Assembly (NCBI GenBank): GCA_021613535.1
Contig: CP075493.1
Location: forward strand, 5,146,001-5,210,000
Length of the DNA: 64,000 bases
Direction: 5' to 3'
Source of the DNA: Adineta vaga
Taxonomy: Eukaryota > Animalia > Rotifera
The notes beneath the pieces were generated by a model. That model did not search any database. It worked only from the letters and a program-made list of their open reading frames with translations, and had not been told where the DNA came from. A program made the position numbers and the translations under genes. This document shows, one piece after another, positions 495-22,679 of the stretch (within the stretch, counting starts at the first letter, position 1; every line of letters starts with the position of its first letter).

Positions 495-2703
495 ATGTTG
501 AAAGCAATAACGACAATCACAAGTTTAACTATAATTTCAGTTTATTTCATACTTCTTTCTCTGACTTATCCATATGTATGTTGGTTTAAACATCGACCAC
601 CCAATGATGATGATTATTTACCACCTCAAATTGCGAAAATTATTAATAGACAAAGAACAAAATTTTGCTCCAAAAAGTATCCACTTAGTCTCATGCCAAT
701 GCCGTCGAAAATAATTATATCCGAGATGCCAAAACTATTCATATTCCTTCGATTATTCGCATCAAAACCACATGTTCTCTAACATTTCCAACGTTAAATT
801 CATCAGAAAATGCTTCATTTATTCTATCAATTGATTATGAAATCGACATGAAAAATAATTCCTATCCCGATTTGGGTATCGATGAATCCTATCAATTGAA
901 TATAACTTCAGAAAATGATGCTTTATTAGTTGCTAAAACATATGTCGGTATTATTCGTGGTCTTTCAACATTTCAACAATTACAATATCAAAAAGAAATA
1001 CCTATTCCACTTTCAATTCATGATCAACCACGCTTTATTTGGCGTGGTTTAATGCTCGATGTTGCACGTCATTTTATTCCAATATCAATGATTAAACAAA
1101 CAATTGATTTAATGAAACTTGTCAAAATGAATGTTTTACATTTACATTTAAGTGATGATCAAGGTTTTCGCATGGAATCGAAACGATTTCCATTACTTCA
1201 TGATTCATTGCTATTCTATTCACAATTAGATATTCGTACTCTAATTGAATATGCTCGAGTACGAGCTATTCGTATTGTACCTGAATTTGATATACCAGCA
1301 CATACAGCTGCATGGTTTGTTGGTTATCCACATTTAGCAAGTAGTCAAAAACGTTCGTATCAATTAGGAAAAACCTGGGGTGTTCAAAATGCCACGATGG
1401 ATGTCACTCGTCAAAGTACATATGATTTTCTTGATCAATTCTTTGCAGAAATGACACAAGTATTTCCGGATAAATATTTTCATATTGGTGGCGATGAATG
1501 TGTACCTTATGAATGGATACAATCGGAATCGATACGAAAATTTCTTCAACAAGAAAAATTGTACAGTCCTCAAAATTTACAAGCATATTTTACAAGACGA
1601 GTAGGAAAATTTCTAGAAAAATATAATCGTACGTATCTTATAAAACATAATAATTGATTGTGCATATATCGTTTTTCTTAGGTACAATGATGGGTTGGGA
1701 TGAAATTAGTACAGGAGATCTATCTAATCAATCTCTAATTCAATCATGGCGTAGTCGAATATCTCTCATAGATGCTGTTCATCGAGGTTACAATGCAATT
1801 CTGTCACATGGTTTCTATCTTGATCATATGTCACCAGCTAGTTTTCATTATAGTAATAATCTACGATTTGATTTTATGCTCAAGAAATCAGAACAAAAAC
1901 GTATTCTTGGTGGTGAAGCTTGTTTATGGACGGAATATATTGATGCAAATATGACACATTCTCGTCTTTGGCCACGAACAGCAGCTATTGCTGAACGATT
2001 ATGGTCATTTCAATATGATCAAATTGAATGTATGTACGATCGACTTTATCAATTAGATAAATATATATTTCATCCAAATGATGAACAATATCGAGAGAGT
2101 TTATCTAAATTCGCATCAAATGTTACTGCTTTGAAATTACTCGCAGATCTATGTGAACCATTAGGTTTACATGGACGTGATCAGAAACGGAACTATACGA
2201 GTCAAACTCCATTGAATCGTTTTGTCGATTTTCTACGACCAGAAAGTGAACAAACTCGACAATTAATAAAAATAACAAATATTTCAATATTATATTCAAC
2301 ATTTCTCTCGTGGAAAAGAAATCAATTCTATATAGATTCAAATGAGACAGAAATTTTACAACTTTCAGAAAATCTCATTCAATTAGGTGATATTGGCATT
2401 CGTCTATTGAAATTAATCGATAAAAATCAAGAACAAACAATCGTTTCATCTCGATGGTATTCTTATCAATTATATCTATTAAAAACATTAGAATATCAAG
2501 TACCAGAAATACGCTTAGCCGGTGTACGTGTTATTAAAGATTTACTTGAACAAATTGATTATTGTGCATTTGATTTCATTAATCTTAGTCTTCTTTTGTT
2601 TTTTCCATTGATTATTATTATCGTACAACGAATTAGTTTTATTCGACGACGTTTACTTTTACCATGTTTACTGTATTGTTTTCACAAATGTGCCCATTTG
2701 TAA
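495..2703 (+). CDS. Beta-N-acetylhexosaminidase (GH20), bacterial-type, one intron (1629-1681), apparent 1-nt frameshift near 720
   Basis: GH20 motifs LMPMP, DESYQL, WRGLMLDVARHF, HLHLSDDQGFR, PEFDIPAH, catalytic HIGGDE, MMGWDE, GGEACLWTE, WPRTAAIAERLWS. Intron GTACGT...TTAG joins KYNR/TMMGWDE in frame. Hydrophobic segments at both termini. Confidence 0.92.
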
Positions 2704-2770: not shown

Positions 2771-3349
2771 TTATTCATCACATGTATACAGTCGTGCACG
2801 AATACGTTCATGAACAAATTCATCTGTTAAATTCCAACCCCATTCAGGTAATAATTGTGGTCGTTTATGTGGAGTTAGAATAATCAATTTTTTTGCAATA
2901 AAACGTAATTGAATCATTACAAGTGGTAAATACGATGGTAAAATAAGATGAGCAGCAAAACTACAAATAATCACATCATAGATTTCATCTTCACTCTCCA
3001 GACAACCATCAGCAATTTGTTCGAATGTCCATTTACCATGAATAGGAGTACCTAGACGTTTTTCATATGCTTCACTTGTATAGGGATCAATTCCATTGAT
3101 CGATTGAAAACCTAATTGACGAAGAATCAATGTAATTTCACCACTACCACATGCTAAATCAAGAATTCGATCTGTAGGTTTTAAATTCCATTTTTTAACA
3201 AGTTGACCAACAATAGTAGTTAGACGATCTTCATGTGGATTTCGATAATCAGCACCGTATTGACTATAATATCCATTGACACCATATTTTTCATAGGCAT
3301 GTCGAATAGCAAATTCTTCGTCATCTTTATCATCATCTTCATTTGACAT
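2771..3349 (-). CDS. Class I SAM-dependent methyltransferase, intronless
   Basis: Motif I ILDLACGSGE, GIDPY, YDVIICSFAAH; likely ATG at 3349 (MSNEDDD). Confidence 0.88.
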   Translation of the reverse strand: MSNEDDDKDDEEFAIRHAYEKYGVNGYYSQYGADYRNPHEDRLTTIVGQLVKKWNLKPTDRILDLACGSGEITLILRQLGFQSINGIDPYTSEAYEKRLGTPIHGKWTFEQIADGCLESEDEIYDVIICSFAAHLILPSYLPLVMIQLRFIAKKLIILTPHKRPQLLPEWGWNLTDEFVHERIRARLYTCDE

Positions 3350-9042: not shown

Positions 9043-10271
9043 CTATTTCATTGTATTAGTCGGAAGTGCAGAAGTTGATAAAAGTAAATATTCACTTGTT
9101 AACGTTTCACAACTTGATGCATCTGTTACAATTGTTGGTAATATTTTGGGCGGTATTTCATTCGATATTGTACTTATTAACGTTGGACATAAACTATCTG
9201 CACTTAATGTTGAATGACATGTTTGAGAATTGATTTGTTTCGTTGTTGGTATGGGTGATGAAATCGTTATCGATGTTAAATTTTCACAAGATGCTGTTAA
9301 ATTACGTTTAATATACGCAGCCATGAATACACGTTGTTGCTCTTTGGTCAAGGATAAACATTTGAATGTCATTTTACTAGACTAAAAAATCAACATTATA
9401 GGAATTTTAATCCACATGAAGACAAACAACACAAAAATTCTCATACCTTATTACGTACATGACCTTTACTTGAACAAACTTTTTCGAGAAAAACTTCTTC
9501 GTAAAGAAAAGGTCCAAGAAATGTGTAGACAAAAAATAAATTGCCAAATGCAAGAATAGAATTATTATTGATATAAAATGTTACTAATGATCGTATTGGA
9601 CTAAAGAGATATAAACATATCCATGTAATCGTTATAGATAAAGCAAGAAGACTGGTTAACAAGTAGATAAGATCATTTCGATAATTATATAAATGATATC
9701 GTATACTTGATTGAAATGAAAAAAGAAATAATAAGAAAAAATTCAATGATAATGAACAAAGAAATAAGGGTCGTGAACATTCGTTTGAACATTGATCAAA
9801 ACTGTCTTCATAATTATGATAATTGTAAAACCAAATAATAAGAATGCCAGTTTGAATTAAAATAACAAGAAGAAACAAAAGAAATGAACTCAATGAAATT
9901 AAATAGGTTTTTTTTGTTGAAGAATTCGCCATTTTAAATAACCATTGATGTGCAAAATGAATATTAAAACCAAGTAAAAGAAAAAACGGAAAAATCTGTA
10001 GGGAAATGGATTGAATTGTACAGATCCAATTTCGTGATACTTCAGGACGAAAAAGAAATGTCATTGAAGATAATAAAACGAGTAGAAGAGATAATTGTGA
10101 AATAAAAATATAAATTGTTGTTGATGAATGACGATGATTTCGTATATAAAATATCATATATGACAAATAAAGGATCAAACCAATGATAATAAGACCGATT
10201 AAACCATAAGATGGGAGATCAATTATGAAAATCGATGATGAAGAAGAAGACGACGAATTCGTGATACACAT
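9043..10271 (-). CDS. Multi-pass membrane protein, class C GPCR 7TM-like, no large ectodomain (exons 10271-9447, 9381-9043)
   Basis: About seven hydrophobic segments, FLFRP...C before TM3 and a Cys pair in the ECL2 position; phase-0 GT-AG intron leads to a Ser/Thr-rich tail. Confidence 0.6.
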
Positions 10272-11437: not shown

Positions 11438-13447
11438 TTATCTATTTTCATTACAACAACCTGGATTGAAATACAAATCCTAAAATGAAAAGTATTGTTA
11501 TTGTTGTTGTTTTTTCCTGAGAAAATATTCAAGTTGTAAAGGATACTTACATGACGAAGATGACATTCGAAACAAGGCGTTTGAAATGGTGTAGATTCAT
11601 GAGCTGCAAATTTTTCATCCATAGTTCGATTAACCTGTGGATAAAGTTTGAGATGATTTTTGTAACTATTGATAATCTAATCTACTTACACAAGTAACCA
11701 TTCGTGCTAAATCATAATACCAAGCGGTTCGTGCAAAGACTGTAATTAACGATTGAATAAATATACTACCATCATCAGGCGAACGCCATGAAACATAATC
11801 TATAATACAAAAAAAAAGATCAACGTTGATTTTGAAGAGTATGTATCAAATCATGAAAATAACCTTTGACAGTTGAATACCAAATTGCCATATCACTTCG
11901 TATAGGTACCATTGTTGATCGATGACCACCACTATCAACAATAGTACGAGGATTTTCATTGGTAATACTATCTGATGACCAGATATTATTCGATCCGGTT
12001 GATAGAGAACGATTATTACATTGTGCTATAATAACATTTTAATCAGAACTATGGAATCTTCATAAAAGATTATTCTTACATCCTCGACATGCTTGTATAA
12101 TGAATAACTTCGGTTTTCCAATTAAATGATCATCAAATACAGATATAATATGTTCATCAACCTTCGAAATCAAAAACTATTTTTCTTATCTTCGACTTTA
12201 TTTTGTCTTAACTTACATTTAAAGCGAGTTCATCAACAGCATAAATAGTTCCATTTCCACCATGACTTAAAATAATCACTATCGAACAATCGCAAGATTC
12301 CTTCTTTTCTTCAATTAAATTAGCAAAATTTTCGATAACATTGATCATTTCCTAATAGAATAGAAAAAAATGTTATTTAATCGATAACAGAAAAGAATAA
12401 ATGTAACAAACTGTGTAGGTAAGATTTCGTCGAGGAAGAACAATAAAGCCGAGTTGTTCGAATAAACTTTTCAATTTACTTGCATCGACATCCGATCCTT
12501 GTCGAACTTCCATGGTTTTAAAAGCATCGACATTATTTATTAATAAACAATAACCACGTGGTTTACTTAACATTCGATAACACTAAAACAATTTTATCAT
12601 GAAAATCAATAATGAATGAATGACTAACCTTATTGGATCGTTTTGTTGGATCTAATTGTGGATATTGTTCAATAAGATCAGCTGTTAATAATTGTACTTC
12701 AAAACCCATAGGTACTTCATCTTCAAATTTAGTTACTTCAAGATTATTCAAATCATCAACTGAGATTTTATTATCAATCGATTCAATGTTAGTATCCATA
12801 TGACGTAATTGTTGATCTTCAATACTAGTTGGAACTGTTGGTTGTCCTCCAACAAGTGTTGGAAAATGATATTCAGCATCAAGTTGTTGACGAAGATTAC
12901 TCAGAAGAAAGTTTTCATCAAGTAATTGAACTAAATGTTGATTACCTAATGAAGATAGAAATGATAAATATGAGATAATAGATCGGTCTTCAAATACTTA
13001 CCAGCCAAATAGAGTGCTTCGATCAAAGGTTTAAATGCATGTTTACCTCGACTTAATACAAAATTTATTAATTCTCGTTTACGATCCTCAGGTACTGGAT
13101 ATTGCTATGAAAAAAGAATATTGTCAGCGATTACTGAATAGAATATGTATGAACTTACATGAAGAATTCGTGAACAAACAGAACGTGGTATTACTCCTAC
13201 AGATTCAAGGTAATCCATAACTTTTGTTGCTTGACACATAGAATAAATTAATTTATAACGATTTTTTGTGAGTTTTCTGATACATTCAGCATCGTCATCA
13301 TCCTAATAAACGTCATTATTTAGTTAATCGATTGAAAAGAAATAGATTACTTACTTCATTTTTAATATCATCTGTAGTTGTTGTAAGTAGAGAGTTTCTT
13401 TTAAGAAGTTCGATTAAAGTAAGAATTGAATTTTCTTGTTCAGACAT
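11438..13447 (-). CDS. Initiator-type caspase with N-terminal CARD-like domain, multi-exon
   Basis: KPRGYCLLINN, R.GSDVDA, ILSHG, KPKLFIIQACRG (about 12082-12118), SWRSPDDG, QTPCFE; N-terminal KNRYKLIYSMCQATKVMDYLES and SRGKHAFKPLIEAL are CARD-like. Confidence 0.92.
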
Positions 13448-14119
13448 ATTACATAAATTTATTTGAACATTGAAAATAGATAATTGACAAGAACGAATCT
13501 CGTTTGTATTATGTTACAGAAGATTTCTGAAATAACGATGTTGATCAGTTGTTCCCTCTTGAATTCGAAGGATTTCGATAATAGAAAAGTTACTGTTTGT
13601 TTTTGACTTTTCCTTCCTTTCTTTCTTTTGATCGATGCCAATCGAATTGAATCATTTCATTCACAAATATTGGTGATAAAGCCATTCATGAATGACAAAC
13701 AGATGGCGCTATATTTTTCAGTATCAAATACGTATTCTGTACTTCATAATTGGACTATTCATAATAGTTCTATGCAAAACAATTGATAAATCAATTATTA
13801 AACTTCTTTCTTTTTGCACATACTCACAAACTTCGAAAATTCAACATTTCAATAGTGATATGATAACCGGATTCCATTCATATTCTTGCATGTAATCAAT
13901 AGCATTTTCTTTCGATAGTTAAAAAAGATCCGTCATTTAAAAATTTAAGACAGGTCATGAATCAATAGGTTAAAGCAATTCTCATAACCATAAAAAAGTA
14001 TCGTAAATGAAAAACGTAAAATTCGCAGTGTATCAAAGAAATAGTCATACAGAAAAGTTTGATCTACTATGAATACGTCGTAACAAAGTTTTGTTAATAC
14101 AGTTCATAATGTATATTGC

Positions 14120-17100
14120 TTACGCACTATCAACATCATTTGATGATTCTGTCATTTGTAACAATTGATCTAGTTGACTTTCATAGTCTGATATTTCCAT
14201 CTGGTCTATCTCACCAGATGAATGAGCTATTTCAACAGCACGGAAAGCACAATTGGCAGCTTCTTCGTATCGTTCAAGACCTGTTAATGCCATTGCCATG
14301 TTACTATATGTCTTGGCCAACAAAGGATGGTTATTAGAGAGTGATTTAGACATAACCTGAACTGCTTTTTCAAAATACAGTAATCCTTCTTGGTACACTT
14401 TCATATCACAGAGAATTTTACCAAAAGAATTATATGTGGCACCTAATGACGGATCGTTAGGTGGAAGATATTTCTGCTGAATTTCCATCCCTTGGGTATA
14501 ATGTGAGAATCCAAGCAAGAAATCGTTCAGGAGAGTTTGTATTGGATTCTCATCGTCATCATCGTCATCAGAGGAGATTGTTGCTGTATTGTCTAATAGA
14601 AATAAGTTCTGCATGGTTTCGCAACCCTTTTTCATATATGAAATCGCCTTCAGCATATTTTCAGTGATTAAATCCTGATCAGTTGCATCGATATTGCTTT
14701 CGTAACACTTTGATCGAGTCAGTGGTGACGATTGTTGAATTTTTTGGAACAGTGTCTCAAAGTTTGACAGTCCAACTGACAAGCTTTTCATGAAAGCTCT
14801 AATGTCATTAGGATTGGCAAGGAGAGCATCTGACTGTGTGCGAGAAGATGATGTCAGTTTCTGTAGTGATTCAATCACATTCTTTATATGAGAAATACCT
14901 TCAGCCGAGTAATTTGAGCATTCTTGCATTGTGTGAGGATCACAACTAGATAACTGTAATAACTGTTGATTTTTTGAGATAAAATTTTGTTGAAGTTTAG
15001 CAGCATTCTCCAAACTGTTCAATGCATTTTTGTGATTGTTCATCAATTGGTTCACTATACCTATACGCGCGTGAAAATTACTGACAATTGGATGATCATG
15101 AGAAAGTGATGTCTGCATTATTGCTAGTCCTTTTTCAAAGTATGAGAGTGCTTTACGATAATTACCCAACGATTGATGACTATCTCCAATAGAAATATAA
15201 CAACAAGCCATGTGTGAATGATTATGTGGAAGAGATTTTTGTAGTATTGCAAGTGCTTTCTTGGAATAAGATAATGCTGTCTCACGATATCCACATGATC
15301 GATGAGCATCGGCCATATTAATATAGAGCATGGCAAAATCAGGATGATCAGATGGAAGAGACTTGTGAAATATTTCGAAGGTTTTCTTAAAATACGATAG
15401 AGCTGCTTCGTAATTGCCTGTTGAGTAATGTATTGAAGCAATATTGTGATAGATTGTAGCTAAAGTTGGATGATTTGTTGGAAGAGATTTGTGCAAGATT
15501 TTCAGCGTTTCTTCAAAGAATGATAGCGCCATTTTGAAATTTCTCATGAATTGATACACTAAAGCAGTATTGTTGTAACAAGTAGCTAAAAATGGATGAT
15601 CAAATGGAAGAGATTTGCGGTATATATTAAAAGCTTGCTCGAAATTGAACAATGCAGTCGTATAGTCACCCATATGTAAATGAACAACAGCAGTATTATT
15701 GTATATCGTACCGAATATTGGATTATCATGTGGAAAAATGTTTTGGTAAGTCTCAAGTGCTTTCTTCAGATGTTTTAATGCGCTCGAATACTCTCCGATT
15801 GACCGATGTGTTTCACCAATATTTATATTGACAAAAGTGCGAAATAACTCATCGATGTCGCAATCGTCATCGAATCTTGTTTGAATTAACATGTTAAATA
15901 TTTCTAGTGCACTTTCATATTTGCCGATTTTCATCATCAACATTCCCATCCGATGCCAACCGCCTATGAAGCCTATTTCTTCTCGCAAATAATCTGTCAA
16001 AGATTTCAAGTCAGGATCATTATCACTTGTCAATGCCAGGGAGATTTCCCATAAGCTATCTTGAATTTTAGTCAATTCACCAATTCGAAATACAGTGTGC
16101 ATTGAAAATAGAATTTCTTCTTCGTCGCCAAACTTGCTTAGATCGCATAGTGACACATATGGTGCAGAAGATATTGATGAATCAATTTCCATTCGAAATA
16201 GTACTCCATGCATATCAATATTTTGACGAGCACTCTCAGCAAACATGAGAGAAACCTTTCGATCCATACTTGTAGATAAGAAACTATTGAATGCAAACAA
16301 ACCACCTTTGTTGTTTCGTATTTTCTCAACATCAGTTGCCTTTAGTCCTTGTCCTCGATAAACAATCATCTTTGTCGTATGCGATACTTCTTCATGTCTC
16401 TGTTTGATTTCATCATGAAGATCACGAAGAAAGAAACCCATCTTGATCATCATTTCAGTGTCTTGAATGCGAAGAGCTTTGTTGAGTGTCGAATAGACGA
16501 ATGGTTCTTTTGTGTACCACCATATGGGTGAATGACGATCATAATATTTTTCGAACTGATGTAATGGTTGTGATCTAAAATCGTTCTGGTTGGGATGCTT
16601 GAGATAGAACTGTGTAAATGCTTGTCTTGCATTGTGATCATGTTCGATGTCGAGAATGATTTCTTTGATTAGTTGTGTATACATGAATGACTGATCTAGT
16701 TGATCAAGACTAGAAGTAGATGTGATGGACACGATACTGAAAGGCGCTTGATCAAATTGTTGACGAATAAGAGTTTGTCTTAGTGTTTCAATAATGACAT
16801 TGAAATTGGTGAATATTCCTTGTACTTTTTTGCATACCTTGACCTGTTGATCATTCAGGGTCAGTTCAGAATCTAAGATAAAGATCGACTTAAGCTGAGA
16901 AATATCTTCAAAAATAGAAACTAGTGGTTGCAGATGATGATTAGACATAATTAAGATCACGTGTTCATTAGCTATATCGGTGATAAAATCAATACATTCA
17001 TTTAGATCAGTGAATACATGAAATGAACCAGCAACTTCACGGAATTTATCAATGATATCATCTATATTTGAATGCGGGTGTTGTGCATTTAAGTTTAGCC

Positions 17101-17302
17101 AGATAACAATGACGTTTTGTATGGTCAAAGGATCTAATGTTCGATGTAAAGTGTCTTCAGTTTGTGACTTATTTGCTTTATCTGCCGAAAGATCAGATAT
17201 AAGATTTGTCTGGTTTCTAATGATACTTTTTCGTGTGGACGTTATATTCTCATCATCGGACGAAGATACAATACTAAACTTGGATCGTTTCTCGCGCAGC
17301 AT
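14120..17302 (-). CDS. ADP-ribosyltransferase (R-S-E type) plus TPR-repeat protein with N-terminal receiver-like domain; intronless
   Basis: Open frame of about 1060 aa; VYRGQG, FNSFLSTS, DEEEILF catalytic motifs; 42-aa kinesin-light-chain-type TPRs (SLPxxHPxLATxYNN). First ATG at 17302. Confidence 0.9.
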   Translation of the reverse strand: MLREKRSKFSIVSSSDDENITSTRKSIIRNQTNLISDLSADKANKSQTEDTLHRTLDPLTIQNVIVIWLNLNAQHPHSNIDDIIDKFREVAGSFHVFTDLNECIDFITDIANEHVILIMSNHHLQPLVSIFEDISQLKSIFILDSELTLNDQQVKVCKKVQGIFTNFNVIIETLRQTLIRQQFDQAPFSIVSITSTSSLDQLDQSFMYTQLIKEIILDIEHDHNARQAFTQFYLKHPNQNDFRSQPLHQFEKYYDRHSPIWWYTKEPFVYSTLNKALRIQDTEMMIKMGFFLRDLHDEIKQRHEEVSHTTKMIVYRGQGLKATDVEKIRNNKGGLFAFNSFLSTSMDRKVSLMFAESARQNIDMHGVLFRMEIDSSISSAPYVSLCDLSKFGDEEEILFSMHTVFRIGELTKIQDSLWEISLALTSDNDPDLKSLTDYLREEIGFIGGWHRMGMLMMKIGKYESALEIFNMLIQTRFDDDCDIDELFRTFVNINIGETHRSIGEYSSALKHLKKALETYQNIFPHDNPIFGTIYNNTAVVHLHMGDYTTALFNFEQAFNIYRKSLPFDHPFLATCYNNTALVYQFMRNFKMALSFFEETLKILHKSLPTNHPTLATIYHNIASIHYSTGNYEAALSYFKKTFEIFHKSLPSDHPDFAMLYINMADAHRSCGYRETALSYSKKALAILQKSLPHNHSHMACCYISIGDSHQSLGNYRKALSYFEKGLAIMQTSLSHDHPIVSNFHARIGIVNQLMNNHKNALNSLENAAKLQQNFISKNQQLLQLSSCDPHTMQECSNYSAEGISHIKNVIESLQKLTSSSRTQSDALLANPNDIRAFMKSLSVGLSNFETLFQKIQQSSPLTRSKCYESNIDATDQDLITENMLKAISYMKKGCETMQNLFLLDNTATISSDDDDDDENPIQTLLNDFLLGFSHYTQGMEIQQKYLPPNDPSLGATYNSFGKILCDMKVYQEGLLYFEKAVQVMSKSLSNNHPLLAKTYSNMAMALTGLERYEEAANCAFRAVEIAHSSGEIDQMEISDYESQLDQLLQMTESSNDVDSA

Positions 17303-20300
17303 TTTTAATTTATTAAAATCAGTATAATGCACATTGTGACGAATAAAAATGCATTTGATAAATTCACCTGTATTTATATCTCAATAAACCGCCTATCTTT
17401 TACGTTAATAACCCTTAACATTTTATACAACTACACTTGATTTTATATATTTCTTTGTCTATTCATAGTTTTTGTTGTTGAGTTACTGATGCATATTATA
17501 CAACAGAGTTGGTAAAAAGACATCGTTGTTGGAATAAAAATTTGCTTTGCGTTCCTTCGTGAGTTTGCAATCCACATATATAATAAAAACAGCCGTGCTT
17601 TATCGTTTTCTTCGTCGATATACTTTCTGATTTATTTATGTCACAATAGACAAAACCATTGTCGTACGATTTACTTCTCATCGAAAAACTTCTATATATA
17701 TATATTACCTACATATGCAAATCTTCTTCGTTGAATAATACTGCACGATAAAAAACAAAATTTAAGATTTGTTCTTATAATCTACACCGTAATCTGTCAT
17801 CAATGATTCATTGAAATTTGAGTCAGTTCAACTTCATCTTAGTATATACAATTATAAAGTTCAATAAGCTTAAGATATTTCTATATAATCTCAATGTCAG
17901 TAATTTATCAAGTGTTGAAATTAATAATTATTGCAACTTTGAATACTAGGTCAAGTACATATCAACACAGATATCGAAAAAATTAAAATAAATTTTCACA
18001 GCAAAAAGAAAAGAGAATTCAGCACATCATCAATCAATAAGATTATTTGCAAATATTCAAGTCAATGTCCCAAAGCTTTTTTTTCTTCTCCTCTCTTTCT
18101 CTTCGATTATCAATACATATATATATATCGGATATCTATATAGTTAAAGAATATGTGTAGATCTTTTCAATGCAATCATTTGTATTGATAGACATCTGAT
18201 CTTTCTCAATGAAATACGAACAAAAATAAATATATCGATATCCAAGATCAATGAAAATGATTCTTTTCTTTTTTATTCTCTCTCTCTCTGTAATTTTTCT
18301 TTTAGAGAAATAACAAACTTACACATATATATATGAAAAGAAAACAACACGCTATTGCCTCAGAAAAGACAATAATAGAGAGTAAAAACATTCATCAGGA
18401 AAACATTATTTATGGACAAAAGGACACGGATGCGTCATCGAATATCAATGTTAGAACATAAGAAATATTTTCGTATTCTTCTTCTTACAATCAAAGAATC
18501 TTTTCTTGTCATCATCTAGTTTATTGACATAATACAGATGACATTTCTAACTAATAGATTTTCTATGTTGTTATTCATAATCAAAAAGATTAGAACTTCA
18601 ACAGTAAACATCATTTTTTGTCGGAAAAGAAAGAGGAACGTATTTTTTTATTTCTTTCTATACTCGTATTAGAGCGACCTCCAACAAGATTTACTTTATT
18701 CAACATTATTTGTTTAACAGGAAGAAACATTGTCAAGAAAATCGCTAGTTATATTGAATTTAGAAACTTTGGAATTTTTATTCATCTTAATTAGTTCATT
18801 AAAATAACAATTTATTCGATTGGTTATTTTACCGACTTAGTAATTATTCATTGCAGTCAATATTATTTTTTGACGTGATCAGACAGTTCTATTATATAGG
18901 TGTAATGATTGATAGATTCTTTTTTTTCATTTACAACTAAACACATTCGAAAAATGATCAATACCTTTTTACTATTATTGTCCAAAGAAAAGGAACAAAT
19001 CTTATCTATATTTAATGAAAAAAAGACACAATTCCTCCCTTTACTTTTCATGTGAAAACAAGTAGCATATTTTCCTCTCCTTTTCCTTCTTCTTCTTCTT
19101 CTTCGTCTTTCTTTCTCTCTCTCTCCCTTTCCTAAAGACACAGGTCGTAATATAAACAGATGTCCCTCATGTGTATTTGGTCGTCTGTACTCTCTTTTGT
19201 ATGAGAGATTGACCGTACCGGAAGAGAACAGCAACGACGATAGACATATAAAAAAGGAGAGCGAACAAATCATATTGTCAATTTTTTCTTCCTATTCTCT
19301 TTTTCTCTCTTCTTTTCAGGGTAATACAAAAAAAAAGAAAAAAACTAGGCGAAAAGAAGAAAGAAGCAGCCCATAGCCCAACATCATTATCGGCGACACC
19401 GCCACACGCGAAGCTCTCACCATCTTGCTTCGCAATCAGATCACTTACATTTATATATACATATATCGTCTGCGTCTTCTTCGTTGTCATCACAACGTTA
19501 TTTATTACCTCAAAATATAACTGCTTCTTAGTCATTTTTCTTTTCTCATCTTCTTACATTACATTCATTTACAATTATTAGCCTGTTGACAATATCCTCC
19601 GAACATCTCTCAATTAATCATATCGAAATTATAGAGACAGGTAAATGGATATCATAACTTTAAAAAGAACGAAAGAAAAGAAAAACGAACTGAATATATA
19701 ACGCATTCAATCCTTACTACCATAAACTATGGTAATAATTCTTTAATATAACATGACCTTCTTGTTCATCATCATCGTCATCATTCTTCTCATGAATAAA
19801 TGCCATTGATTCTTTCTTGTTTTCTTGTTCTGGTGAACGTGAACAGGCATTTCTTTTTCGAGAAGGAAATACTTGTACATACATGTTGTATTGAGGTAGT
19901 AAGCTGAGAAAAGAGAATGAAGAAGCGAGGAAAAAGAGAATCGGAAAGAAGAAGAAGAAAAAGGCCAAAAATATGTATGTGTCTTTCTCTATATGTACAA
20001 TTAATCCTCTAGTAACAGTTATCCCATTCATACGACCATATGTAGTCGAGCTTTGTCATCATCATCATTATCATCATCAACTTTTGCTTTTCATCAATTG
20101 TCCTATAGAAATGAAAAAATGAACGAAAGTATCGATAGAAAGTGAAGGTTAAAATCAAGAATAGAGAGAGAGAGAGTGAAAGAAAGATCTCTAATTGATA
20201 TTTGTATATGTGTACATTTGCGTATACATCTATACTGACAAGTCTCATTAACTGAGAAGACCATAGATAGTATTCGTCATTCATCCGTGACCAATGTACA

Positions 20301-20373: not shown

Positions 20374-22679
20374 ATGTCGTCCTTGTTGTTACAGGAGGAG
20401 GAGATGTTCTCGCTGCCAACTACACCTAATAACGCCACACCATCACCTCCGTCGTCGACCATAACGACGACGACAACAACAACACCCGTTTCAGCTCCTG
20501 TGGCATCCGCCGAGAAGACGCATGGAATTGCAATCGATGAGCCGTCGGCAAGTTTCTTTTTTAATTTTCTTTGTTACATTTGTTTATTTATATTTATTTA
20601 ATCAGGTGGCTCATCAAGCCATTCTATTTATTCTCGATGTGCTCATACGTAACAATCAAGCTATGCCTATTGTGAAGCTTTATGATAGCTTCGCTGATCG
20701 AACATTTACACCTCAAATGTTACGTGCTGTCGGTGGTAATGAGCAAGGATTACAACAATTCTTGCTTCGATATCCATCGTTATTTACTGTCAATAATGAT
20801 ACAGTTTCAGCTAATAGTGCAACACCCGTTCGCACGATCAATTCCTCCAAATCTCATCATTCGAAAACGAAATCGTCAGTTTTATCCGCCTCGACAAACG
20901 AGGCGAATGAATCTGCTCCTGGAACAGACATCATGACACTTTCGACAAGTAACAATAATGAAACAGTATGGGATGCAAAAACAATGCGTGAAATCGAACA
21001 AGAGGCAATTAATTTTTTTAAAAAGCAATTAAGCAAACGTGAGGAAGAATGGTTACCTATTGTTAGTGTTGCTGGACATGCTTCACAAGCAAGTGCTGAT
21101 GTTCGAAAATATGTTGGACCACAAAATGAATTTAAAATATTTCTTTCACGTTATCCCAATATATTTGTCGTACGAGAAGAATTTTGTGGTCTAAAAGTAA
21201 AAAATCAATTCAATTGAAAATAAATACAAATCATTTAATTTTTTAGGGTAAAGCAGATCTATCAGGTGTACCATTTCCACCTCCATCACCACCACCAAAA
21301 CGACGTGTAGCATTATTAAATAATAATATCATAAATACGAATGGAACAAATTTAATGTTAACACGTTCAACATCATTTAAAACCAATATACGACCAATTA
21401 TTGGTGGTTTAAATAATGGTTCAATGCCAAGTACACCAACTAGTAATATCAATCCATCGATGTTAATATCAACATCATCATCAGTTTCGTCATCATCAAC
21501 ACCAATACGAAATTCATCACAACGTTTAACACCTAACGAAGTTAAAGCTGTACATTATGTCATGCGTCTATTATATAAAAATGGCCATGTTTTACTTCAA
21601 AATGTTCCTGGATTAATTGCTCGTGCACCTGATCATCTTGCTCAATTGATCGGTTTTACACGTGAAGATTTAATCGTTTTCTTTAAACGACATAATGCAA
21701 TCTTTCAATTACATATCGATGGAACTGTTAGTGTTAAAACAGATGCTGTACGAGCATTATTAAATAAAAATGATAGTACACAAATTTCACCATCATCTAT
21801 TCAATTAGCTTCATCACAACAAACAACATCCATAACAGCATCAGGTGTTGTTATACGCATTTTTCCAAAATATGGTATTTTAAATATGGATAATAATGAA
21901 CAAGTCTTTTTCGATATACAATCATGTCATTTTGAAACATTTAATGATTTGACATGTGTTCTTAATTCCGGCGATTCGATGAATTTTAATGCAATACTTG
22001 GTCCAAAAGAAGGTAAATATACAATACATATATATATGTATCGATATTCAAGAGAGTTGTTTTTCTGTTTTTAAAAGGTTCAACGAAATGGAAATCATTA
22101 AAAACATGGCCACGTCAAAATAATCGTCCAGCTCAATTAATTACATCAACTAATTCCAATTCACCTTTATCACATATGGTCCATTCAATAAGTGCTAATA
22201 ATCTTTCATCGATCGCATCTGGCAATGGTGGTTACATCTCTCCACCATCCTATGAGCATTATACAACTATTCATCAACATCAAAATTCTATTCCGTCAAA
22301 CGGCTATGCACCTATTGATCAAGATTTAAATGCTTATCAAATGTCAATGGATAGCAATGGTGGGCTCGATGATTCATTTGATAATAATAATATTATTAAT
22401 GAAAATCAATCTCCACCAATTTCATTAACAAATTCGACCGGTTCAAATCGACATAGTCGTTTATTTCTACCACCAGTTGACGAAGAACAATGTCCATTAC
22501 CGAAAATGGCTGGTGGTCTCGATGCTGAAGTTCTTCGTCGAAATTTACAACAAGTCGCTCGACGTAAAAATGCCATCTCTTTACGTGAACAAGCCGATGA
22601 AACAGGTCGATATGTATCTCAAGGTTGTCAAACGACATCAACAGGAGAAATTCTAGCGACGAATATACATATCGAATAA
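20374..22679 (+). CDS. Egalitarian/LIN-66-like RNA-binding protein: three winged-helix (LOTUS-like) domains, cold-shock/OB-like domain, C-terminal QT motif; 4 exons
   Basis: FTPQMLRAVGGNEQGLQQFLLRYPSLF and LPIVSVAGHASQASADVR resemble the first two Egalitarian winged-helix domains as I recall them; SGVVIRIFPKYGIL...VFFD is CSD-like; ends VSQGCQTTSTGEILATNIHIE. Introns 20548-20605 (GC-AG), about 21197-21247 and 22013-22078. Confidence 0.75.

Follow-up and report, generated by a model that had tools for sequence, protein, structure and literature searches.

Receiver-like ADP-ribosyltransferases with TPR arrays form a very large gene family in bdelloid rotifers and possibly serve in defence

Gene content of the locus

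The window, a 64-kb stretch of DNA that was analysed as a whole, contains 18 open reading frames (ORFs) of at least 150 amino acids, the longest of which runs on the minus strand for 1060 residues without a stop (Table 1). It joins a receiver-like N-terminal domain to an R-S-E ADP-ribosyltransferase (ART) and an array of TPRs, an architecture that a sequence-only reading of this DNA had proposed and that Pfam, predicted folds and the repeat period confirm; that reading gave no strand. Pfam matched ADPrib_exo_Tox at residues 269–414 (E 3.5e-8; 33.4 bits, cut-off 23.4) and ART at residues 243–424 (25.9 bits, cut-off 22.3), together with TPR_12/TPR_10. These three parts, together with a short insert, account for the protein, in which Pfam found no NACHT or NB-ARC P-loop ATPase. 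A hydropathy scan revealed neither a signal peptide nor a membrane segment (maximum 19-residue value 0.95; N-terminus negative), and the protein is likely to be intracellular or cytosolic, judging from its sequence.

The frame is also intronless over its 3.2 kb, as first read. This is normal for the close subfamily, in which 40 of 46 related loci have no stops or intron-sized gaps, these being loci whose match spans the receiver and the start of the ART, some of them redundant and all found by a search that favours gap-free loci. Short contigs match the focal gene without differences at 14453–14641 and 16016–16180; they come from three runs that were guessed to be RNA, none being so recorded, which leave most of the ORF uncovered and say nothing about its level of expression.

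Two further family members lie in the window, and the three copies are in three states, as described earlier. Copy 2 has H in place of the catalytic R, WTI in place of STS and no ExE; to this we add a frame break near 40724–40731 and an apparent intron at 40969–41020 in the receiver domain (GT..AG from the sequence alone, without RNA support). Copy 3 keeps R, STS and ExE, carries three in-frame stops and a frame change and, as a further addition, is truncated, ending at a 347-nt MITE-like element. Many contigs from DNA runs stack on this element.

Table 1. Positions of the focal gene, its domains and motifs, and neighbouring features in the window
Feature	Position	Strand	Basis
Intact single-frame gene: pseudo-receiver, R-S-E ART and 42-aa TPR array	14120..17302	-	ORF, Pfam, RNA-run contigs
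CheY-like receiver fold without phospho-acceptor Asp (predicted pseudo-receiver), aa 62–185	16748..17119	-	AF2 model, VIA-align, column counts
R-S-E (ARTC-type) ADP-ribosyltransferase domain, aa ~200–430	16013..16705	-	Pfam, Foldseek, conservation
aliph-R, R278	ART domain	-	
arom-R, R316, in Y315-R316-G317 (YRG)	16355-16357	-	read directly
STS motif, S343-T344-S345	16268-16276	-	read directly
ExE in ARTT loop, E394 and E396	16115-16123	-	read directly
First TPR block, aa 447–778, one degenerate and seven scored 42-aa repeats	14969..15964	-	Pfam, autocorrelation, repeat scoring
Insert of ~150 aa with acidic run, aa 786–935, between TPR blocks	14498..14947	-	
Second TPR block, aa 950–1033, two repeats	14204..14455	-	repeat scoring
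Spliced caspase gene with weak CARD match	11438..13447	-	RNA contigs, domain matches
Family copy 2, catalytically degenerate	40639..42607	+	3' part in an RNA-run contig
Family copy 3, pseudogene truncated in TPRs	49456..50836	+	
347-nt non-coding element with 66-nt terminal inverted repeats, MITE-like	50831..51177	.	

A predicted receiver fold joined to a conserved ART

The N-terminal domain is predicted to have a receiver-like fold, which bears out its earlier description as receiver-like alpha/beta. Its AF2 model (pLDDT 83) comprises five strands and five helices, and VIA-align gave a best Z of 11.0 (rmsd 2.7, 113 residues aligned, full-domain cover), with receiver or response-regulator entries making up about 46 of the 50 rows listed. 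Foldseek on the same domain gave a mixture of flavodoxin-like folds and nothing below E 0.001, and we found no family name for it in Pfam, NCBIfam or the Atlas. Strand 3 (residues 114–119) ends in aliphatic residues and then Ser in 190 of 253 homologues. The phospho-acceptor Asp is outside the five commonest residues in either column at this position across the 253, the register being taken from secondary structure and not from a residue-level structural alignment. K159, positioned before strand 5, is conserved in 235 of 253 (columns were tabulated up to residue 165).

The toxin-type R-STS-ExE site was likewise found intact. Among the 120 closest homologues, R316 is kept in 119–120 and S, T, E394 and E396 each in all 120; overall, 236 of 253 retain all four catalytic residues R, S, E and E, in both cases among homologues selected by likeness to the intact query. 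These near-invariant residues span several genera at 35–60% identity. Every Foldseek row listed for the ART model (pLDDT 86) was an R-S-E ART, the best being Vis, CDTa, HopU1, C3, ExoS and Tre1 (E 1e-8 to 5e-6, 10–17% identity), and dN/dS in the ART core was 0.12–0.23 in three diverged gene pairs. Because the catalytic residues are kept and the core is under purifying selection, the focal enzyme is likely to be active, as a mono-ADP-ribosyltransferase. An ExE motif as a rule directs ADP-ribose transfer to arginine, and the first Glu, invariant here, favours transfer over plain hydrolysis. Prediction of a complex between the receiver and ART and the TPR block, run without alignments, scored 0.01, a value with no bearing on contact either way.

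Variation in the TPR array

Autocorrelation gave a repeat period of 42 residues for the focal array, which holds nine scored repeats (residues 485–778 and 950–1033) in addition to the degenerate first one. The insert between its two blocks is common to only 4 of 252 other homologues. Across 253 proteins the number of TPRs varies from 0 to 17, and a scan of 10 atypical homologues for other C-terminal domains returned TPR and ART families only. A repeat pair at least 80% identical is present in 19 of 207 proteins; the focal gene shows no such internal conservation, its most similar pair being 50% identical.

Positions 6, 13, 16 and 17 of the repeat, which share one face of helix A, are among the most variable. 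In comparisons of near-identical internal repeats, 23 of 28 proteins differed more in the groove than on the outer face (sign test p 0.0009, the proteins being not fully independent because they are related), and pooled dN was 0.42 in the groove versus 0.22 on the outer face (17 repeat pairs, 7 loci; Fisher p 0.0004). The sequence-only reading had suggested looking at the concave face for signs of selection: the groove does change about twice as fast as the outer face, but its dN/dS of 0.77 falls short of positive selection (outer face 0.41, other positions 0.33; none above 1, in a small sample). In the diverged pair L006/L017 groove dN/dS was 0.05, and across 24 paralogue pairs the differing positions were nearly equal in proportion (298/912 in the groove versus 352/1202 on the outer face). 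We set aside a groove excess in near-identical alleles (L005 versus L002/L004; 7–8 nonsynonymous and 0 synonymous changes) because it depends on one low-coverage truncated contig with about 3 groove differences in three aligned repeats. A variable groove is a feature of TPRs in general and is not specific to immunity. Defence roles have already been proposed for the TPR expansions of bdelloids (Arkhipova 2013).

Family size, turnover and origin

Family matches numbered 2134 at 90% clustering and 4573 at 50%, and all named matches were bdelloid; 431 genes in A. vaga and 366 in A. ricciae are assigned to GO:0003956 (PMC11258130 Suppl. Data 3). The family amounts to hundreds of genes per bdelloid genome, given which three copies within 64 kb are unremarkable; the focal locus is an ordinary member with nothing special about it. 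The closest UniProt and NCBI relatives are 60–62% identical, and entries from Adineta, Rotaria and Didymodactylos called 'NAD(P)(+)--arginine ADP-ribosyltransferase' or 'Kinesin light chain' belong to the same family under automatic names. Our literature searches found no description or functional study of the family, in keeping with the earlier statement that none was known. Birth-and-death turnover, suggested at first from the three copies, is supported by gene decay, 8 of 53 related loci being interrupted by stops or frame changes; diverged gene pairs are under purifying selection overall (dN/dS 0.16–0.34).

Scans of prokaryotic genomes, phage, PADLOC, NCBIfam and PHROG gave no convincing source, so the donor of the ART was not found. 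The receiver–ART core was unmatched in phage records, PADLOC and NCBIfam, and PHROG gave only weak matches, to Alt-like ARTs. The prokaryotic scan produced two loci, which we rejected as evidence of bacterial origin and judged to be rotifer contamination: one (L052) is an AT-rich contig of 1953 nt and the other (L053) a chimera that joins GC-rich bacterial genes to AT-rich eukaryotic ones. An Atlas cluster with ART, commonest in ciliates (score 0.76), is a lead only.

Expression under challenge and the caspase neighbour

Published data did not bear out the expected induction by fungal challenge: every list in which the GO class is enriched is a 'down' list (6 and 19 of 431 A. vaga genes; 8 of 366 for A. 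ricciae), and no 'up' list contains it, in a test that covered HGT-candidate genes and for a class that need not equal the receiver–ART–TPR family (PMC11258130). Genes over-expressed in desiccation and rehydration show an enrichment for 'ADP-ribosylation', which the authors discuss in terms of PARPs (PMC10809525).

Beside the focal gene lies a co-directional caspase gene, with its ATG at 13447, 673 nt beyond the ART gene stop. The sequence-only reading had described it as a CARD caspase. The caspase is real: GT-AG splicing is visible in RNA contigs, a C14 match extends over four exons, and SHG and QACR motifs are present. Its CARD match is weak, however, being divided between two exons (E 0.05 and 0.006), and a functional link is unsupported. 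None of 53 related loci shows a caspase match (274 kb; many with short 3' flanks), no other neighbour in the window recurs around them, and about 1.3 ART–caspase adjacencies per bdelloid genome are expected by chance (431 x 2 x 101 / ~66,000 genes). The RNA contigs of the caspase extend no further than 13598, and no contig links the caspase to the ART gene. The caspase is probably unrelated to the ART gene and outside the system, and adds little to the interest of the locus.

A tentative model and its rivals

The reading that we favour, at slightly under even chances, is that the family is a recognition-coupled repertoire of cytosolic mono-ARTs that operates without an NLR ATPase and likely serves defence against invaders; it rests on the hundreds of paralogues, conserved catalysis, variable repeat number, faster-changing groove and gene decay. 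The TPR groove of each paralogue would bind a different peptide surface, on an invader protein or a guarded host protein, and binding would bring the ART into place or set it free to modify arginine, with NAD+ as the ADP-ribose donor, on that protein or on one close by. The pseudo-receiver, lacking the phospho-acceptor Asp, could be a protein-contact or allosteric module that regulates the enzyme, and dead-site copies such as copy 2 may be decoys, regulators or just decaying. A bolder form of this idea, which we think rather unlikely, is an NLR-sized set in which hundreds of intracellular immune receptors without an ATPase each combine parts of bacterial type: a pseudo-receiver switch, a toxin-type arginine ART and a recombining 42-residue TPR sensor. 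If true, bdelloids would possess a sensor-effector class new to animals, which would partly explain how these largely asexual animals keep pace with parasites.

The main rival is a non-immune signalling role, possible but on balance doubtful, in which TPRs recruit host substrates on which the ART writes a reversible mark, the family having expanded as kinases have for stress, desiccation or development. The receiver fold suggests such a role, and it agrees with purifying selection in diverged pairs, with the decrease of the GO class under fungus and with the desiccation and rehydration enrichment, to which a contribution of this family is only possible; hundreds of paralogues, frequent pseudogenes, varying repeat number and homogenised internal repeats nevertheless suit conflict better than housekeeping. 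We consider improbable a model in which the protein is a sensor that holds its ART in an autoinhibited state, in which the ART once freed depletes NAD+ or causes cell death, and which is wired to the adjacent CARD caspase. An effector at the N-terminus with repeats at the C-terminus does recall NLR logic, and the caspase is close, co-directional and transcribed, but against this stand the lack of a caspase match in 53 related loci, many with short 3' flanks, the adjacency expected by chance, RNA contigs that end short of the ART gene and an invariant first Glu that favours transfer over hydrolysis. Slightly less probable still is a selfish or neutral expansion, in which a toxin-derived gene multiplies through duplication while being largely dispensable, somewhat in the manner of AACRNL, for which free-living eukaryotes, Rotifera among them, offer a precedent (PMC12957317). 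The intronless subfamily, the low RNA cover and the many broken copies would fit, yet the active site is near-invariant between genera, dN/dS is low, transposase or reverse transcriptase was seen neither in the gene nor beside it, and AACRNL has an H-Y-Y-type ART in another architecture.

Whatever its role proves to be, immune or regulatory, the family is very large and its enzymes are unstudied: bdelloids encode hundreds of apparently cytosolic R-S-E ARTs whose active sites are near-invariant and which are joined to a receiver fold without a name in databases. If the recognition-coupled defence reading holds, the family bears on the old question of bdelloid resistance to coevolving parasites.

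Comparison with known systems

The N-terminal domain resembles response-regulator receivers and pseudo-receivers in its five-strand, five-helix predicted fold (Z up to 11.0) and differs from response-regulator receivers in lacking the strand-3 Asp, in its 3–16% identity and in having an ART as output. R-S-E ARTs in animals are generally described as a handful of extracellular enzymes. The rotifer ART shares with the animal ecto-ARTs (ARTC1–5) a Pfam ART match above cut-off and the ExE motif; unlike them, it has no signal peptide or anchor in a hydropathy scan, a cytosolic architecture and a massive expansion. With bacterial R-S-E mono-ARTs (Vis, HopU1, ExoS, Tre1, C3, CDTa, SpvB) it shares the predicted fold, and it carries the arom-R, aliph-R, STS and [QE]xE elements defined for such enzymes (PMC6829252), but it is 10–17% identical, is encoded by an animal in hundreds of copies and is fused to a receiver and TPRs, with no secretion or translocation part seen.

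Like NLR and STAND receptors, the family ends in superstructure-forming repeats of variable number. Its 42-residue, kinesin-light-chain-type TPRs, which match the Podospora repeat structure 4y6c, resemble those of fungal NLR-like STAND proteins in varying repeat number, some internally conserved arrays and a variable groove (Dyrka et al. 2014, PMC4986451), whereas the rotifer protein lacks a NACHT or NB-ARC ATPase, has an ART effector and a receiver, and belongs to a family whose groove dN/dS is 0.77. AACRNL, too, is a mono-ART that derives from a toxin and has expanded in free-living animals (Xu et al. 2026, PMC12957317), but it combines an H-Y-Y diphtheria-type site with a Crinkler/UBL N-terminus, whereas the family described here combines an R-S-E site with a predicted receiver fold.

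Architecture of the focal protein

The minus strand of the focal gene encodes a protein of 1060 amino acids, and the plus strand there is riddled with stop codons. This frame is the longest among the 18 open reading frames (ORFs) of at least 150 amino acids in the window, where GC content is around 30% and introns are short and bounded by GT-AG. Matches to ADPrib_exo_Tox and ART exceed the Pfam cut-offs, and Pfam also recognises numerous TPRs; the repeat period is 42, and nine repeats score against the family matrix, with a 150-aa insert preceding the final two. The sequence-only reading of a receiver-like domain fused to an R-S-E ART and a TPR array is real and correct, for a gene that is an ordinary member of its family.

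R-S-E ARTs are defined, in the available text of PMC6829252, by arom-R, STS and [QE]xE motifs together with a weaker aliph-R motif. The focal protein has all of them (L277-R278, Y315-R316, S343-T344-S345 and E394-x-E396). The 120 closest proteins all carry S343, T344, E394, E396 and R278, and 119 of them carry R316; R, S, E and E are retained in 236 of 253 homologues (these 120 and 133 more distant ones), a set picked by likeness to an intact query and therefore under-counting dead-site members such as copy 2. An AF2 model of residues 51-450 (pLDDT 86, pTM 0.83) matches Vis, CDTa, HopU1, C3, ExoS, Tre1 and SpvB, with E values of 1e-8 to 5e-6 at 10-17% identity. The ExE motif would imply transfer to arginine. 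Hydropathy revealed no signal peptide or membrane helix.

The N-terminal domain matches no Pfam, PHROG or NCBIfam family convincingly, and no family is common to its 30 nearest Atlas clusters, which are mostly Rotifera among those listed. Modelled alone (pLDDT 83), it alternates five strands with five helices. Foldseek returned weak flavodoxin-like matches and nothing better; with an exhaustive aligner, response-regulator receivers headed the ranking (Z 11.0, rmsd 2.7, 113 residues) and receivers filled nearly all of the best 50 rows. Ser closes strand 3 in 190 of 253 proteins, and Asp is absent from the common residues there, so the domain is a predicted pseudo-receiver. The receiver is doubled in homologues P0027 and P0126, and the entire receiver and ART core is duplicated in P0008, P0012 and P0252; these may reflect genuine rearrangement or the fusion of gene models.

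Features of the window
Feature	Coordinates	Strand	Description
Hexosaminidase gene	848-2703		Glycosyl hydrolase family 20; two long ORFs, few introns; possibly horizontally acquired
Methyltransferase ORF	2771-3349	-	Second methyltransferase ORF
7tm_3 region	9441-10271	-	Class C GPCR-like transmembrane region, apparently without large ectodomain
Caspase gene	11438-13447	-	Spliced
Caspase intron	12026-12081	-	Ends not canonical GT-AG in window sequence; RNA contigs differ by two letters at the joint, possibly allelic
Focal gene	14120-17302	-	Receiver-like, ART, TPR
Egalitarian-like gene	20522-22074	+	Winged-helix domains (Pfam WH_Egal); upstream of ART gene, divergent orientation
Copy 2	40639-42607	+	Family member
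F-box-like/LRR gene	42865-43904	+	Right after copy 2; weak Pfam LRR match
Legumain-like gene	46870-49226	-	Peptidase C13, spliced; very deep RNA-run contig cover
Copy 3	49456-50836	+	Family member
MITE-like element	50831-51177		347 nt; 66-nt terminal inverted repeats (95%); truncates copy 3
Broken frames	51041-52006	-	Presumably resemble plant or bacterial-type SAM-dependent carboxyl methyltransferase
F-box-like/LRR gene	52774-53232	+	Near copy 3

Family size, range and decay

Homologues fall into 2134 clusters at 90% identity (proteins of 583-1855 aa), with 596 more among shorter proteins, and into 4573 clusters at 50% identity, 989 of them below E 1e-30. Among the matches listed, covering the best 120-150 of each cluster search, every homologue with a named source comes from a bdelloid rotifer (Adineta, Rotaria or Didymodactylos), the closest being 60-62% identical across residues 50-450; this points to a bdelloid host for the window. 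Nowell et al. 2024 (PMC11258130, Supplementary Data 3) assign the arginine ADP-ribosyltransferase GO term to 431 genes of A. vaga and 366 of A. ricciae. A search of prokaryotic genomes found no true prokaryotic copy; two matches in genome bins look like contamination and were rejected. Phage records yielded no match at all. One Acetobacteraceae-bin contig (L053, 1-10988) is a chimera in which GC-rich rhamnose-pathway genes abut AT-rich rotifer-like DNA that carries a P-type ATPase and a broken ART-TPR gene; contamination of this kind could mislead claims of horizontal transfer.

In copy 2 the active site reads H and WTI and lacks ExE, and an apparent intron interrupts its receiver. Its frame is also broken near 40724-40731, a point absent from the earlier description; a DNA-run contig differs there, so the break may belong to one haplotype or stem from misassembly. 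A 705-nt RNA-run contig is identical to the 3' part of copy 2. Copy 3 retains the motifs, is interrupted by stops and by a frame change, and terminates at the MITE-like element, which occurs once in the window but is likely to be repeated in the genome, because many DNA-run contigs pile up on it. Stops or frame changes also occur in 8 of 53 related loci, some possibly through assembly errors; together with the decayed copies 2 and 3, these indicate that the proposed birth and death is real but family-wide. The neighbouring F-box-like/LRR genes, read from translations, belong to a kind that is expanded in bdelloids.

The family already carries automatic UniProt names. A full-text literature search, with most subscription journals outside its scope, found no published description of the receiver-ART-TPR architecture; its receiver fold, the invariance of its catalytic residues and the combination of domains appear to be undescribed so far, and the family, a remarkable one, is apparently unstudied.

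Candidate mechanisms

Tentatively, we consider it most likely that the protein is a cytosolic mono-ART that the TPR groove would aim or switch and the pseudo-receiver would tune, in a family that may have diversified for biotic conflict. Strict autoinhibition coupled to caspase-driven death is improbable. The caspase gene begins 673 nt beyond the ART stop codon. Two of its exons match CARD weakly and four match C14; its splicing is visible in three runs that are presumably RNA, and no contig joins it to the ART gene. Eight caspase exon queries, all of which match the window as a control, had no match in the 53 related loci (274 kb, several redundant), a weak test for loci with little 3' flank (0-3.8 kb in the 22 loci measured); none of 921 other window frames matches the 53 loci either. 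With 431 ART genes, 101 caspase-domain proteins and around 66,000 gene models, about 1.3 adjacent pairs per genome are expected by chance, leaving the suggested caspase link unsupported.

A role in host signalling or stress marks is the main, though less likely, alternative to the conflict-driven mono-ART. In runs bearing spliced RNA, short contigs are identical to the focal ORF over two stretches of 189 and 165 nt and show 3 differences from it at a third place. The intergenic bins on either side (13808-14275 and 17552-18000) have no contig cover, which hints that the ORF is transcribed. Induction by pathogens had been predicted, and this fails for fungal challenge: in the available data of PMC11258130, HGT-candidate genes that go down are enriched in the arginine ADP-ribosyltransferase GO class (in A. 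vaga, 6 of its 431 genes at 7 h and 19 at 24 h, FDR 1e-12; in A. ricciae, 8 of 366), and the class is in none of the up-regulated sheets. Constitutive sensing, or defence directed at other enemies, is compatible with these data; the authors raise such a trade-off for down-regulated HGT genes in general. Selfish or neutral spread seems the least probable explanation. In three pairs of diverged genes taken from metagenome loci, dN/dS is 0.12-0.23 for the ART core and 0.16-0.34 for whole genes.

Variation in the TPR array

TPR number ranges from 0 to 17 across the 253 proteins, partial ones included, and positions 13, 16, 6, 35, 17 and 3 of the 42 vary most. Four of these, 6, 13, 16 and 17, share one face of the first helix, and we equate this face with the ligand groove on the basis of TPR geometry. 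In 23 of 28 proteins, near-identical internal repeats differ from each other more at groove positions than at exposed positions of the outer face. A DNA comparison of 17 disjoint repeat pairs, drawn from 7 loci, gives dN/dS of 0.77 in the groove, 0.41 on the outer face and 0.33 elsewhere. Across 24 paralogue pairs the faces differ about equally (0.33 groove, 0.29 outer), and the groove of one pair of loci, L006/L017, is strongly conserved (0.05); the focal gene's own repeats are at most 50% alike. Only the 17-pair test is partly independent, because the position sets were derived from the same protein collection as the 28-protein and 24-pair comparisons. In the groove, too, dN/dS stays below 1. 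Expansion of TPR and other repeat families, with a proposed role in defence, is described in the available text of PMC3846280. The rotifer pattern resembles that of fungal NLR-TPRs, but it is weaker than the positive selection reported for those fungal repeats in the available part of PMC4986451.
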